Below the pieces are notes generated by a model that was not told where the DNA came from, did not search any database, and saw nothing but the letters and a program-made list of their open reading frames with translations. A program made the translations under genes and the position numbers. A stretch of DNA of 21,066 nt from a virus, in UHGV virus genome UHGV-0139471, one strand, 5' to 3'. This document shows, one piece after another, positions 2,876-6,100 of this stretch (the first letter of the stretch is position 1; the number at the start of each line of letters is the position of its first letter).

Positions 2876-3047
2876 AACGCTTTTGCCCTCCGGTTAAAGA
2901 CCCCCACAACTCCGCGTGCCCGACTGTGGTTACACTTGACCCATTTACCGCATACCATGCGCTCATACCGAAACGACGAAACGCCCGGGATCGGGTACAT
3001 CCGTAGTTGCGGTAATTGAAGATTTACGATTAAATTGCTCATGCGGA

Positions 3048-3599
3048 TTATTTCTCCATACACAAAGATTTATTCGCCACGACGCCCGGAGCTGCACACT
3101 CGCGGGCGTCACTATTTTCTGGCAGGCAATAAACACGAGAAATCAGGTTGAGAAACGTCATCAGCGTGACCCTGAACTGGTAGGCGATATCATTCAGACT
3201 TTGCCACTCCCCGTGTGTAACCACCCCATCATCGATATATTCCCGATAGGCGCTGACCAGCTCGCCGAGTTGTCCCACCAGCTCCGCCAGCTTCAAACCA
3301 ATCTCTTCGTTCTCGTCTTCATGAGCTGCGCCAGATACATGGATCCCGTTGTCGGTTTCACGTGAAAAAACATCGGCGATGTAGCTAACACCTGCTGCCT
3401 TCTGCAGGACCATTGCCCAGCCCATAGGGAATATCTGATCTCCACCAGCACGCAGCCGGTTAAAGATCGCGTCCTGGGTGGTATCCAGAATCTCAGCTGC
3501 TTCGATATAGCCACCAGGTAACGCGGCTATTGTTTTACGGATTGCTGCCACCAGCCACGCGGGCTGTTTTTCTACTTTCCAGGTTGGTTCATTACCCAC
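3048..3599 (-). CDS. CII-like lysogeny regulatory protein (phage 186 CII / CP76-type)
   Basis: Track ORF 3048..3686 overlaps cro; a GTG at 3599 preceded by AAGGGG Shine-Dalgarno lies just downstream of the cro stop and gives 183 aa. Segment AAEILDTTQDAIFNRLRAGGDQIFPMGWAMVL resembles the HTH region of 186-type CII as I recall it. Confidence 0.5.
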   Translation of the reverse strand: MGNEPTWKVEKQPAWLVAAIRKTIAALPGGYIEAAEILDTTQDAIFNRLRAGGDQIFPMGWAMVLQKAAGVSYIADVFSRETDNGIHVSGAAHEDENEEIGLKLAELVGQLGELVSAYREYIDDGVVTHGEWQSLNDIAYQFRVTLMTFLNLISRVYCLPENSDARECAAPGVVANKSLCMEK

Positions 3600-3627
3600 G
3601 GTGTACCCCTTATCTCTGTGGTTCCTA

Positions 3628-3837
3628 TCAAACTTTTTGTTCTTTAAGCTTGCTATACAGCTCCGGTTGGAAAACAAGTTTCCCATCGGTGCGGTACGCG
3701 GCTTCAGCAGCCCTCCCTTTTGGGATCAAGCGACCGGGTCTGTTCCGCCACTGATAAACAGCTTCGCTGGATATGCCAAAGAACTCGGCTACCTTCTCAG
3801 CGTTTCCAAAGTACTTTTCAACATCATCGGTGGTCAT
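3628..3837 (-). CDS. Cro-like HTH repressor
   Basis: 69 aa; HTH-like segment VAEFFGISSEAVYQWRN; GGAG Shine-Dalgarno 6 nt upstream; divergent from the cI-like gene across a 100-bp operator region. Confidence 0.7.
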   Translation of the reverse strand: MTTDDVEKYFGNAEKVAEFFGISSEAVYQWRNRPGRLIPKGRAAEAAYRTDGKLVFQPELYSKLKEQKV

Positions 3838-3851
3838 AATGGCTCCTTTAA

Positions 3852-3865
3852 CTAAGTTTGATTAG
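3852..3865. promoter_or_regulatory. operator-like palindrome CTAAGTTTGATTAG (OR-type site overlapping pR)
   Basis: 14-bp CTAAG-N5-TTAG inverted repeat just downstream of the predicted pR -10 element. Confidence 0.5.
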
Positions 3866-3894
3866 ATAATAATTACCAATCTATCTTTGGTCAA
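3866..3894 (-). promoter_or_regulatory. pR-like promoter for cro and the leftward early operon
   Basis: On the minus strand: -35 TTGACC (3894..3889), 17-bp spacer, -10 TATTAT (3871..3866). Confidence 0.5.
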
Positions 3895-3900
3895 TAAAAA

Positions 3901-3914
3901 CTAAGATTGCTTAG
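3901..3914. promoter_or_regulatory. operator-like palindrome CTAAGATTGCTTAG
   Basis: Near-perfect 14-bp inverted repeat (CTAAG-ATTG-CTTAG) 24 bp upstream of the cI-like start. Confidence 0.5.
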
Positions 3915-3937
3915 CTTGATTGACTACTGGTGTGTAA

Positions 3938-4564
3938 ATGGAAACTGTCGGACAACGAATAAAATCGCTTAGGCGAATCACCAGAACCTCACAAAAAGAG
4001 CTTGGGAAGTTTTGTGGGGTCAGTGATGTCGCAGTTGGGTATTGGGAAAAGGACGTAAACGTCCCAGGAGGGGAATCTCTTTCCAAACTAGCAAAATTCT
4101 TCAATACATCAATTGATTACATACTTTTTGGCACTGAGTTTGAGGGAAACTTAATAACTAAGATGCGAAAAGTTCCCGTGATATCGTGGGTGCAAGCAGG
4201 ATTATTCACTGAATCAAAGCCTGAAGATGTCTTGCATGATGCCGAAAAATGGGTGGAAACGTCTCTCCGCATCAGCGATAACTCGTTTGCCCTTGAAGTA
4301 AAGGGAGACTCAATGACAAATCCTAATGGACTGCCCACGATTCCTGAAGGCGCAACGGTCATCGTTGATCCAGACATTGAGCCAATTCATGGAAAGATTG
4401 TAGTTGCACGAATAGATGGGACCAACGAGGCCACGGTCAAAAAACTGGTTGTAGACGGTCCGCAAAAATTTCTTGTCCCGCTAAATCCCCGTTATCCTAA
4501 CATCGCCATCAATGGTAACTGCGTCATTATTGGTGTGGTTAAAGGCGTTCAATACGAGCTCTGA
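3938..4564 (+). CDS. cI-like prophage repressor (HTH plus S24 LexA-like autopeptidase domain)
   Basis: 208 aa; N-terminal HTH (QKELGKFCGVSDVAVGYWE); C-terminal Ser/Lys dyad context (GDSM ... TVKKL) typical of LexA/cI self-cleaving repressors; divergent from cro. Confidence 0.9.
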   Translation: METVGQRIKSLRRITRTSQKELGKFCGVSDVAVGYWEKDVNVPGGESLSKLAKFFNTSIDYILFGTEFEGNLITKMRKVPVISWVQAGLFTESKPEDVLHDAEKWVETSLRISDNSFALEVKGDSMTNPNGLPTIPEGATVIVDPDIEPIHGKIVVARIDGTNEATVKKLVVDGPQKFLVPLNPRYPNIAINGNCVIIGVVKGVQYEL

Positions 4565-4583
4565 TCTAAGCTAATCTCCCTTC

Positions 4584-4616
4584 GACACCAAGCTAAGAAA
4601 AGTTTGGTGTTTTTTC
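4584..4616 (+). terminator. rho-independent terminator-like hairpin after the cI-like gene
   Basis: Stem acaccaa (4585-4591) / ttggtgt (4604-4610), 12-nt loop, followed by TTTTT. Confidence 0.5.
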
Positions 4617-4645
4617 TTGACGACAAAACTAAGTTAAGTTAGATT
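4617..4645 (+). promoter_or_regulatory. pL-like promoter with overlapping operator (CTAAGTTAAGTTAG at 4629-4642)
   Basis: -35 TTGACG (4617-4622), 17-bp spacer, -10 TAGATT (4640-4645); the third CTAAG-N5-TTAG palindrome overlaps spacer and -10. Confidence 0.5.
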
Positions 4646-4749
4646 TTCATCTATCAACAGCGAAGAGGCAGGACGCCCACGAAGTAGCCGCCCGGGGCAT
4701 ATGAAGTCCGGGATGATTCGCTGACAGATAAACCAAATAGGAACAGATC

Positions 4750-4983
4750 ATGGCAAGCAAAGGCATTGAAAACCTTATCAAGGACGCATTAGCAAACGGC
4801 TGTCATGTAGTCCGTAAAGCGCATCGCTTCGAGGTAAGCAAGAAAGGCCAAAAATCAATCACTCTTATTATTTGTGAAGATGGCACAGCTTACCGGGGAG
4901 ATATTGACCTAACGATCGCCATAGCCATTCGCACTCAAAAAGAAATGCGCAGCATCCTCGGCCTGCCGGCCAAGGCAAGTTAA
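4750..4983 (+). CDS. hypothetical protein (77 aa); weak HicA-toxin-like resemblance
   Basis: AGGAAC Shine-Dalgarno 7 nt upstream; occupies the first position of the pL-side operon. Segment NGCHVVRKAHRFEV and C-terminal RSILGLP loosely resemble HicA (G-W-x-x-R-x-x-GSH ... ILKQAGL), but the GSH motif is not conserved. Confidence 0.5.
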   Translation: MASKGIENLIKDALANGCHVVRKAHRFEVSKKGQKSITLIICEDGTAYRGDIDLTIAIAIRTQKEMRSILGLPAKAS

Positions 4984-6100
4984 TTACCACAGGTATCTTC
5001 GGGAGGGGTTGCGAAGCTGGATTGACCACCAGCAACAGAAACTCACCCGACATACAGCAGCCGTTTAACCCACGGCGTCGGGGGTCCAGTAGACCTGGAT
5101 TAATACTGTAGGGGTTGTGCCGGTTGGTCGCCGGCGCCCCGCCCGAAGATACCTGAACGAACATGGCGAAGCCGACAGCGTTGAAGGCGATTTTCTCGGT
5201 TTGCGCGCTAAACAATAGCGGGGGTGAAATCGGGGCGGAGAAGCAGAATCCGCGATGTCGGGACTTGATACTTCCGGCCATACCAACAAGCCGAATGATC
5301 GCGTAACGATCCTTTGCATCTGCCCCGGCGAGGTGGCGCCGCCGGACCGGGGTAGATGAATCGTACACAACATGAAAGCGCATTCCATCTTCATCCGTCG
5401 TGGGGACTGGTTTGTAACTGAAGGAGTGCGCTTCCAGTTGTGAACGGCAATATTCACGACCGTTGTATGGCACATGCAGCGTTAGCAGCCCGGATGGTTC
5501 CCTTGAAGTTCCATGCGCTATCCGGACAACTGGAATGTGCAAGCTAAGTGTTTCAGGCACGACGTGCGCCCCACCAGCGCGGCGAAAAGGTGTGACGCCC
5601 GGGAAGAGTCCGGGACACAACGATGAGGGCATTGACGAGCAAGGCACAGAGTCTGGTTCGATTCCAGACGCCAGGATAGTTCTATATCTGGTGATGGGCA
5701 GGGAAAAGGTCCGTTCGATTCGGACACCGGCAGTGCTCTCTTCGTTGTGGTAATTGCGGCTATGCGCACGTGACGAGCCAAACCCGTTCAATGAATGCGT
5801 TTCCGGGCAGTGTACGTCGCCGGTTATGGCTTAACCCGGCAGGTGGAGGCACCACCGCCACAACCTAGTTAACTGTGCTGTGTGTAGTCTTGGCGGTTAT
5901 CCAGTTTTCCACTATCCAAAGGAGGAAGAGGATAACGTTCTGATGGATAACCGCCCTTTTTACACAATACACAAGAGCATCACCGGGCGACGGGCTCATA
6001 ACCCAATCCACCCGGGCGGCGTCCTAACCGCAGGTGCTCTTCTGTGTTGTGTACGGAGAAATTCCCGGCGGTGGCAGCCGCCTTTCGAGAGGGTAAAACC

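Follow-up and report, generated by a model that had tools for sequence, protein, structure and literature searches.

The three 14-bp palindromes that bracket the cI-like gene of this 21,066-bp stretch of viral DNA (hereafter the window) are almost certainly, judging from sequence comparison, the binding sites of the prophage's own repressor. We estimate a probability of roughly 0.88 that the region is the switch between lysis and lysogeny of a CPS-53/YmfL-type lambdoid prophage, organized like the immC region of P22 and putatively bound by its repressor through a half-site of its own. The preliminary description had proposed a self-consistent lambdoid OR/OL architecture; comparative evidence supports this proposal and sharpens it to the P22 type. 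It is an ordinary immunity region, and it had been read correctly.

Three copies of CTAAG-N5-TTAG had been claimed, and a motif search across the element found exact matches at 3852-3865 (CTAAGTTTGATTAG), 3901-3914 (CTAAGATTGCTTAG, a perfect palindrome of the form CTAAG-ATTG-CTTAG) and 4629-4642 (CTAAGTTAAGTTAG) and nowhere else in the window. We refer to these sites below as OR1, OR3 and OL1. The chance expectation is 0.11 occurrences per window, and none of 100 dinucleotide-preserving shuffles of the window matched the observed three, all of which lie in the control regions on either side of the repressor gene. A position weight matrix derived from the operator sites of the family, with which the window was scanned for the CTAAG operator motif alone, gave the three palindromes 23.2-25.1 bits (best score in a shuffled window, 16.9). 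Matches with one mismatch at 3959-3972 (inside cI), 4571-4584 and 75-88 were discarded, being unconserved in relatives and compatible with chance. Rfam and ARAGORN searches of the window returned no known RNA family, tRNA or tmRNA.

The comparative set comprised 13 sequences, with 12 relatives (E. coli, Enterobacter, Kosakonia, Kluyvera, Serratia and Rahnella; six genera). Synonymous sites of cI are saturated at this distance: across the 13 sequences, four-fold degenerate positions show 34% identity, and not one of the 63 is unchanged throughout. Despite this saturation, the half-site bases of the operators are 100% identical, whereas the central bases are 31-72% identical, a pattern that delineates an 18-bp twofold-symmetric element with a variable central 4 bp. 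The natural unit is an 18-bp operator of the P22 type, AACTAAG-N4-CTTAGNT, with the core CTAAG-N4-CTTAG. For OR1 the corresponding values are 100% in the half-site columns and 31-62% in the central ones, and in OR3 positions 1-9 and 13-16 are invariant (13 sequences each). As the preliminary description had expected of palindromes beside homologous repressors, the positions of the sites are kept in 12 genomes from six genera. In IMG/VR, the 16-mer of OL1 occurs in 80 viral contigs; a repressor gene (82-100% identical) ends just upstream in 68 of the 80, and both OR sites are present in 67 of these 68.

The divergent cro-like (minus strand) and cI-like (plus strand) genes are separated by a gap of 100 bp. 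Alignment with P22 DNA pairs each OR site with its P22 counterpart (OR1, OR2 and OR3) and also matches the pR -35. OR1 (AACTAAGTTTGATTAGAT, 3850..3867, core 3852-3865) matches the motif exactly (23.2 bits), spans the start region of a pR-like promoter and abuts its -10. The overlap of the first palindrome with a good promoter on the minus strand had been noted previously, and our promoter scan recovered the same TTGACC-17-TATTAT element (3866..3894; -35 at 3894..3889, 17-bp spacer, -10 at 3871..3866) with matches at 10 of 12 positions. Its -35 is invariant in relatives, its -10 reads TATTAT or TAATAT, and its layout is the same as that of P22 pR in Phi75. The scan of 3500-5000 gave only two matches, the pR-like promoter and the pL-like promoter described below; these two sigma-70-like elements overlap OR1/OR2 and OL1, respectively.

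By alignment, the palindrome at 3901-3914 is the counterpart of OR3, not of OR2. OR appears to be three-part because of a degenerate middle site that was absent from the preliminary description, the candidate OR2 (TACCAATCTATCTTTGGT, 3874..3891; core 3876-3889, CCAATCTATCTTTG), which would lie in the spacer and -35 of pR. It is 24 bp from OR1 and 25 bp from OR3 (23 and 25 bp in P22), scores 3.0 bits and ranks seventh among about 21,000 positions. Its pattern C-N-A-A-T..C-T-T-N-G is kept in 13 genomes and 67 viral contigs, the middle site of Rahnella is a good palindrome (CTAATCTTTATTAG), and its right half CTTTGGT parallels the right half of P22 OR2, CTTTAGT; P22 OR2 is itself the most divergent of the P22 sites. 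Conservation of the candidate could come in part from promoter constraints.

OR3 (AACTAAGATTGCTTAGCT, 3899..3916, core 3901-3914) matches the motif exactly on both strands (23.6 bits) and aligns with P22 OR3 (ATTTAAGATGACTTAACT). It probably holds the -10 of pRM, as suggested by the plus-strand hexamer TAAGAT at 3903..3908, which is invariant in all 13 sequences, and by homology to P22, where the same hexamer occupies the equivalent place in OR3 next to the c2 ATG. No recognizable -35 accompanies this hexamer, and the promoter scan of 3500-5000 gave no pRM match. Three other assignments were discarded: TTGACT at 3920-3925 as the pRM -35 is followed by no -10 before the ATG; TAGCTT directly after OR3 as the pRM -10 cannot be homologous to the P22 element, because the P22 ATG abuts OR3; and a plus-strand promoter with TAGATA at the right edge of OR1 lacks a -35 and has the cro ribosome-binding site upstream. 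The ribosome-binding site of the cI-like gene is GGTG (plus strand, 3929..3932; 5 nt before the ATG), in which GG at 3929-3930 is invariant; the leader around it is otherwise unconserved (mean identity 49%).

On the other side of cI, an intrinsic terminator of the cI transcript (plus strand, 4584..4617) consists of an 11-pair stem, a 6-nt loop and a T run. The terminator scan placed the 11-pair hairpin and T run at 4584-4611, and all 11 pairs are retained, with two compensatory changes, when 10 relatives are folded to a consensus. The third palindrome had been placed on a pL-like promoter just past this terminator, and the scans agree: in addition to the terminator they find TTGACG-17-TAGATT on the plus strand (4617..4645; -35 at 4617-4622, 17-bp spacer, -10 at 4640-4645; 9 of 12 positions), directed away from cI toward plus-strand early genes and conserved as CTTGAC and TAGATT in relatives. 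OL1 (AACTAAGTTAAGTTAGAT, 4627..4644, core 4629-4642) is an exact motif overlapping the pL spacer and -10 and has the top matrix score in the window, 25.1 bits. Its core is identical in 12 of 13 sequences; since the central bases are conserved here too, an extra constraint beyond repressor contacts, from the promoter, is suggested. OL contains this single strong site, and at 23-25 bp on either side of it the matrix scan found nothing above 1.5 bits.

A weaker fourth copy had also been reported. A sequence with one mismatch to CTAAG-N5-TTAG and two to CTAAG-N4-CTTAG does exist at 4593..4606 (CTAAGAAAAGTTTG, 11.1 bits), so that its location stands, while an operator role is doubtful. It lies in the terminator stem-loop, its CT and its right half GTTTG are stem bases, and the loop AAG is kept in 9 of 10 relatives; its distance from OL1 (36 bp, about 3.4 helical turns) gives bad phasing. 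We attribute it largely to the terminator stem and have not counted it among the operators.

The cI-like repressor (208 amino acids, plus strand, 3938..4564) combines an N-terminal HTH_3 domain with a self-cleaving S24 C-terminal domain (Pfam HTH_3 and Peptidase_S24). Its N-terminal domain matches the solved P22 c2 structures 1adr, 2r1j and 3jxb, its C-terminal domain matches lambda cI (E = 2e-27), and over its full length it is 47% identical to P22 c2, a comparison in which the AG, GDSM and KKL motifs are aligned. Ala87-Gly88 aligns with the lambda cleavage site, and Ser125 and Lys168 with the lambda catalytic residues. Identity to the solved c2 and cI domains settles the predicted fold, and the helix-turn-helix (TSQKELGKFCGVSDVAVGYWEKD) is unchanged in 10 relatives. 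The cro-like gene (minus strand, 3628..3837; 69 amino acids), first in the pR operon, belongs to the P22_Cro family (PF14549; E = 2.2e-12, 47 bits against a cut-off of 30.2); its product is 36% identical to the Phi75/P22-type Cro, and its helix-turn-helix, EAVYQWRNRPG..LIPKGRAAEAAYRT, is invariant in relatives. Downstream of cro on the same strand lies a gene for a YmfL/CII-like activator (3048..3686; PHROG phrog_101, CII-like transcriptional activator, E = 4e-40), whose homologs in relatives are annotated YmfL.

The claim that the palindromes define repressor specificity gains support from three sister groups, in which the half-site differs in step with the recognition helices of repressor and Cro while the geometry is identical. 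P22, Xenorhabdus and Photorhabdus have the repressor helix VS(N/H)VA(I/V)SQWE, the Cro helix SDAAVSQW and the half-site TTAAG; Morganella and Proteus have VNRVTVTGWEK, KHPSV(S/C)GW and TGTA(A/G)G; the window's group has VSDVAVGYWEK, SEAVYQWRN and CTAAG. One relative, Serratia aquatilis L007, departs from this pattern and speaks against the reading: its repressor helix-turn-helix is that of the window's group, yet its sites read CTAAT..ATTAG, and it lacks a P22-type Cro. Position 3 of the half-site, C here and T in P22, is the most conserved difference, and position 2 also differs, less conservedly. The P22 operator consensus is ATTTAAGATATCTTAAAT (PMC5175364), and on a T3-to-C operator the P22 repressor showed only non-specific binding, at least 16-fold weaker (PMC4267663). 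Since T3-to-C alone abolishes specific binding of the P22 repressor, specificity, and presumably immunity, should differ from that of P22; with position 2 changed as well, the phage is predicted to be heteroimmune to P22. Position 3 reads T, C or G across the three groups, which makes them a natural series for specificity change in the P22 type, and the published T3-to-C data fit directly into that series.

The likeness to P22 immC extends to a c2-like repressor, a Cro of the P22_Cro family, 18-bp operators whose 7-bp arms are predicted to be contacted and whose four central bases are not, OR1-OR3 spacings of 24/25 bp here, counting the candidate OR2, and 23/25 bp there with equal overlap of the pR -10 and -35, and retention of the recognition-helix valine (V31, equivalent to V33 of P22). 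The window does not, however, share the immunity specificity of P22: its helix reads SDVAVGYWEK, not SNVAISQWER, with N32, S36 and Q37 of P22 replaced by D, G and Y, and its half-site is AACTAAG instead of ATTTAAG (P22 operator ATTTAAG-N4-CTTAAAT). Furthermore, E44 and N46, which read the central bases in P22, are replaced by V and G; a 22-nt leader with GGTG lies between OR3 and the ATG, which adjoin directly in P22; there is one strong OL site, compared with three in P22 and lambda; and the neighbouring genes belong to the YmfL/CPS-53 type instead of being P22 c1 or gene 24. With lambda the region shares its overall logic, the gene order (cro, pR/OR/pRM, cI, terminator, OL/pL) and a C-terminal oligomerization and self-cleavage domain with Ala-Gly, Ser and Lys. 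Matches to solved structures revealed no similarity between the N-terminal domain and that of lambda, and the operators, unrelated in sequence and length to those of lambda (17 bp), are not of lambda-type specificity. The operators of phage 434 are 14 bp long, ACAA-N6-TTGT, with central bases that are uncontacted and read indirectly. An HTH_3-class repressor fold, a 14-bp symmetric core and uncontacted central bases recall 434, but the half-site sequence is different, and the 434 repressor was absent among the matches of the window's repressor to solved structures.

Under the P22-type reading, a repressor dimer would occupy each 18-bp operator, with its helix-turn-helix on the outer bases and no direct readout of the central four. 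At OR1, and probably aiding occupancy of the weak OR2, repressor would block leftward pR and thus silence cro, the cII-like gene and the replication genes. The overlap of OR3 with the likely -10 of the repressor promoter predicts negative autoregulation at high repressor concentration. OL1 covers the spacer and -10 of rightward pL, and its occupancy would silence the early-left operon. A P22-type Cro would be expected to act on these sites too, with the order of preference reversed, and prophage induction would follow from RecA-stimulated self-cleavage at Ala87-Gly88.

The operators could be real and the logic not P22-like, with two functional OR sites 49 bp apart and a single OL site; non-cooperative binding or OR-OL looping would then replace adjacent-site cooperativity, as has been reported for the non-cooperative repressor of phage 933W. 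The 933W paper describes lambdoid switches as differing in how cooperative they are and in the relative affinities of their operators (PMC3317979). The 3.0 bits of the middle site as well as the one strong OL site point in this direction, and the lambda cI-like C-terminal domain makes higher-order contacts possible. The middle site, however, falls exactly at the place of P22 OR2, its degenerate pattern is retained throughout the genomes and contigs mentioned above and becomes a good palindrome in Rahnella, and a divergent OR2 is what P22 itself has; we consider this alternative improbable. In a related view the operator set has been reduced: OL would have a single high-affinity site, OR2 would be nearly vestigial, and the hairpin of the cI terminator would carry a half-operator. 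The repressor may then loop between OR and OL (~750 bp) or occupy the terminator DNA instead of using adjacent-site cooperativity. If so, the region would be a minimal natural form of the lambda/P22 switch that is widespread in Enterobacteriaceae; we give this view only about one chance in ten.

It is considerably less probable that the palindromes are conserved mainly as parts of promoters and the terminator, with an incidental mutual resemblance and the repressor binding elsewhere. OL1 does overlap the pL -10 and has a conserved centre, OR3 contains the -10-like TAAGAT, OR1 abuts the pR -10 and the fourth copy is largely terminator stem. Promoter function, though, requires neither twofold symmetry nor identical 5-bp arms at three places; the arms farthest from the promoter hexamers are just as invariant; the sister groups keep the promoter layout constant and swap the half-site along with the recognition helices; and no other repeated symmetric motif was evident, by reading and alignment, in the two control regions.

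Least probable of all, and very slight, is the prospect that Cro alone or another factor (CII-like) binds the sites and the cI-like repressor does not: the Cro helix likewise co-varies with the half-site, so that co-variation by itself cannot separate the two proteins, but the repressor helix-turn-helix does not vary inside the group and differs from one group to the next as the sites do, Serratia aquatilis L007 has a repressor with the same helix-turn-helix and similar sites (CTAAT..ATTAG) without a P22-type Cro, repressor and Cro share operators in every lambdoid phage studied, to our knowledge, and the CII-type activators known from lambdoid phages recognize direct repeats close to pRE, not such palindromes.

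The reading as a P22-type switch leaves the current understanding of lambdoid switches unchanged. It defines an operator code, AACTAAG-N4-CTTAGNT, for a prophage immunity group that is common in E. coli, Salmonella, Klebsiella, Citrobacter, Enterobacter, Kosakonia, Serratia and Rahnella; the motif can be used to type prophages by immunity, and the group supplies ready-made orthogonal repressor/operator pairs. We know of no earlier characterization of an immunity group with AACTAAG operators; none was present in the literature library searched, in which no paper contains any of four operator sequences tested. Several unstudied E. coli phages and prophages (mEp460_4F5, LLS, vB_EcoS-569R4, vB_EcoM-689R6 and Kati) encode repressors 84-88% identical to that of the window; the operator sites are unannotated in their records. 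They differ from the window only by sequence drift, in central operator bases and synonymous sites, and vB_EcoS-569R4 shares all three operators as well as the terminator and pL. Among complete E. coli genomes, the immunity region was found in 456 of 5,426 (about 8%), at about 75% nucleotide identity.

The interval around the cI-like gene appears, from its sequence, to be an immunity region of the P22 type whose specificity differs from that of P22; the preliminary description had interpreted it as an immunity region, and we consider this right. The three CTAAG-N5-TTAG palindromes that had been listed there are all present as exact matches, CTAAGTTTGATTAG (3852–3865), CTAAGATTGCTTAG (3901–3914; a perfect palindrome, CTAAG-ATTG-CTTAG) and CTAAGTTAAGTTAG (4629–4642), and the 21 066-bp window contains no other such match. 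The chance expectation is 0.11 matches (mean of shuffled sequence) and the observed count was reached by no shuffle. Extension by two bases per side gives AACTAAG-N4-(C/A/G)TTAG-N-T for all three. A consensus scan of 3500–5000 returned only two promoter-like sites, which are the two promoters already named: a pR-like one on the minus strand (3894..3866; TTGACC-17-TATTAT) and a pL-like one on the plus strand (4617..4645; TTGACG-17-TAGATT). The latter is located just beyond the cI terminator (4584–4611; an 11-pair hairpin and a T run, same scan) and is directed away from cI, toward a long series of plus-strand genes; the arrangement is the same in lambda, with pL past the cI terminator and pointing away from cI.

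The cI-like gene (3938–4564, plus strand) codes for a 208 amino acid repressor with HTH_3 and Peptidase_S24 domains. It is flanked by a cro-like gene (3628–3837, minus strand; 69 amino acids, P22_Cro family), a YmfL/CII-like activator gene (3048–3686, minus strand) and, further left, a replication gene and a Dam methylase gene. The N-terminal domain of the repressor matches the solved DNA-binding domain of P22 c2 (1adr, 2r1j, 3jxb) and the C-terminal one that of lambda cI; the protein is 47% identical over its full length to c2 of the P22-like phage Phi75, and the Ala-Gly cleavage site (Ala87-Gly88), Ser125 and Lys168 are all aligned. On the basis of these features, it is a c2-type repressor, predicted to be SOS-cleavable.

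P22 operators are 18 bp long (consensus ATTTAAGATATCTTAAAT; PMC5175364), and their outer bases are contacted while the central four are not (PMC4267663). The sites of the window have the same geometry, but the half-site has C where P22 has T at position 3, and it also departs from P22 at position 2, which is less conserved. The c2-cro gap of Phi75 contains ATTAAAGAACACTTAAAT, ACTAAAGGAATCTTTAGT and ATTTAAGATGACTTAACT, spaced by 23 and 25 bp, with the pR -35 (TTGACT) overlapping the edge of OR2 and the -10 that of OR1. The OR region of the window aligns with this gap site for site, OR1 (3850–3867) and OR3 (3899–3916) with their P22-type counterparts, and a degenerate sequence absent from the preliminary description, TACCAATCTATCTTTGGT (3874–3891), lies between them, 24 and 25 bp away. 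The latter scores only 3.0 bits in a matrix scan; it ranks 7 of ~21 000 positions and is exactly at the predicted place. Relatives retain C-N-A-A-T..C-T-T-N-G at this position (the Rahnella version is the palindrome CTAATCTTTATTAG), and the right arm, CTTTGGT, is that of P22 OR2 (CTTTAGT) apart from the specificity base. The degenerate site is treated here as a probable weak OR2. An inverted repeat, ACCAA..TTGGT, is common to this candidate (3875–3891, 7-bp gap) and the terminator stem (4586–4610, 12-bp gap), probably by coincidence; Rahnella relatives lack it.

Repressor bound at OR1, and presumably at OR2, would occlude pR; OL1 (4627–4644) spans the pL spacer and -10, and its occupancy would occlude pL. 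Within OR3, the hexamer TAAGAT (3903–3908) is proposed as the -10 of pRM, the repressor's own promoter, because it is invariant in all relatives and because P22 OR3, located directly next to the c2 ATG, has it at the corresponding place. The -35 region would then be inside OR2 and transcription would start near 3915, giving a leader of ~22 nt that includes a GGTG ribosome site, whose GG is invariant.

Conservation was analysed in twelve close relatives from E. coli, Enterobacter, Kosakonia, Kluyvera, Serratia and Rahnella, whose repressors are 82–92% identical to the query. Sites ~86 and ~37 bp upstream of the repressor ATG are present in 12/12, and a site ~692 bp downstream of it in all except Serratia aquatilis. 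Neutral positions are saturated, since none of the 63 four-fold degenerate sites of the repressor gene is invariant (mean identity 34%); despite this, identity is 100% in the operator arms and in the pR -35, against 31–72% in the central operator bases and 49% in the cI leader. Such apparent selection on the arms, not the centres, is the pattern expected for a c2-type operator. The repressor helix-turn-helix, TSQKELGKFCGVSDVAVGYWEKD, is invariant in the 10 family members examined, as is the Cro helix. The Serratia aquatilis locus (L007; 1386–1508 and 2119–2200) has an identical helix-turn-helix, but G5 is replaced by T in its sites, CTAATTTAAATTAG and CTAAGATTAATTAG; an exact OL1 is missing, as is a P22-type Cro upstream. 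Either this copy is drifting or decaying, or position 5 of the arm may tolerate change.

In more distant relatives the architecture is retained and the arms differ. The repressor helix VS(N/H)VA(I/V)SQWE and Cro helix SDAAVSQW of P22, Xenorhabdus and Photorhabdus accompany TTAAG-N4-CTTAA operators; VNRVTVTGWEK and KHPSV(S/C)GW accompany TGTA(A/G)G-N4-C(C/T)TACA in Morganella and Proteus; and VSDVAVGYWEK and SEAVYQWRN accompany CTAAG-N4-CTTAG in the window's group. The recognition valine, packed in the P22 complex against the methyl groups of thymines (PMC5175364), and the TAAG core are common to all three. With T3 replaced by C in both arms of a P22 operator, P22 repressor binds at least 16-fold more weakly, at the non-specific level (PMC4267663), and position 3 is therefore a known specificity determinant. 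The window does not belong to the P22 immunity group, arm and helix both being different, and its own group should be heteroimmune to P22.

This immunity group was found in 456 of 5426 complete E. coli genomes, in many other Enterobacteriaceae and in the sequenced but unstudied phages mEp460_4F5, LLS, vB_EcoS-569R4, vB_EcoM-689R6 and Kati; a literature search for the operator sequences found no paper containing them. Scanning IMG/VR with the OL1 16-mer returned 80 readable contigs. In 68, a repressor (82–100% identical) ends just upstream of the 16-mer, and 67 of these have both OR sites; in two the 16-mer occupies the OR1 position, another two contain this region in truncated form, and the matches in the remaining eight, which have no repressor and represent two unrelated lineages, were taken as due to chance. 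In seven AT-rich viral contigs from a single unrelated lineage (L088, L112, L128, L130, L134, L136 and L155), this 16-mer, CTAAGTTAAGTTAGAT, follows a non-coding stretch that is conserved; these contigs have no repressor homolog, and the match was again attributed to chance.

A weaker fourth copy had also been proposed. A one-mismatch copy, CTAAGAAAAGTTTG, does exist at 4593–4606, but its role as an operator is doubtful: it lies inside the terminator, whose stem includes the CT and the right arm GTTTG of the copy and is backed by two compensatory changes in relatives. The loop AAG is kept in 9/10 relatives, slightly beyond what the fold demands; the copy has two arm mismatches and is 36 bp (~3.4 helical turns) from OL1. 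No operator site was detected by the matrix scan at 23–25 bp from OL1. We conclude that OL has a single strong site, unlike in P22 and lambda. Of the structural features of a P22-type immunity region, the window lacks the three-site OL and has the others, the middle OR site and the overlap with pRM being candidates.

All relatives resemble one another as far as the pL -10/OL1 and then diverge into at least three unrelated modules (boundary ~4646–4725, alignment A2); since the split is immediate, the immunity module has the operator itself as its right edge. A conserved fold occupies the pL leader (4658–4723), just downstream of pL; in its inner hairpin (4689–4695 with 4708–4715) three consecutive pairs vary in almost all five relatives with complementarity kept. 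This 70-nt element has no match in Rfam. Pantoea phage AH07 has it at 93% identity and has no other part of the queried region (3000–5200). The element could serve in antitermination (nut- or put-like) or in processing. Several relatives have, ~100 nt past pL, a small hairpin followed by GCTCTTTAACAA (L001, 4670–4700; L002, 4085–4110), which we take to match the rrn-type boxA. It is absent from the window (the best match has 2 mismatches and is located elsewhere), whose early-left module differs from theirs after the shared leader. The first ORF past pL (4750–4983; 77 amino acids, PHROG 12911, unknown function) lacks the arginine-rich N-terminus of an N-type antiterminator. It is followed by ~1 kb of the pL operon without a convincing ORF (4984–6043; GC ~56% versus ~44% in the immunity region), where none of the ORFs tested matched Pfam or PHROG. 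ARAGORN found nothing in this segment, nor did Rfam even at E <= 10; its folding z-score is −2.76. The segment may represent a structured phage RNA that has not been described before, or a tRNA-like array that has decayed. Its core (5355–5750) is 68–88% identical to ORF-free gaps of the unrelated Klebsiella phage 1 LV-2017 and Salmonella phage SPC32H, the latter gap lying immediately upstream of a tRNA-Arg, and it contains two T-arm-like hairpins, TCTGG-TTCGATT-CCAGA (5653–5669) and GTCCG-TTCGATT-CGGAC (5720–5736), with one compensatory stem change.
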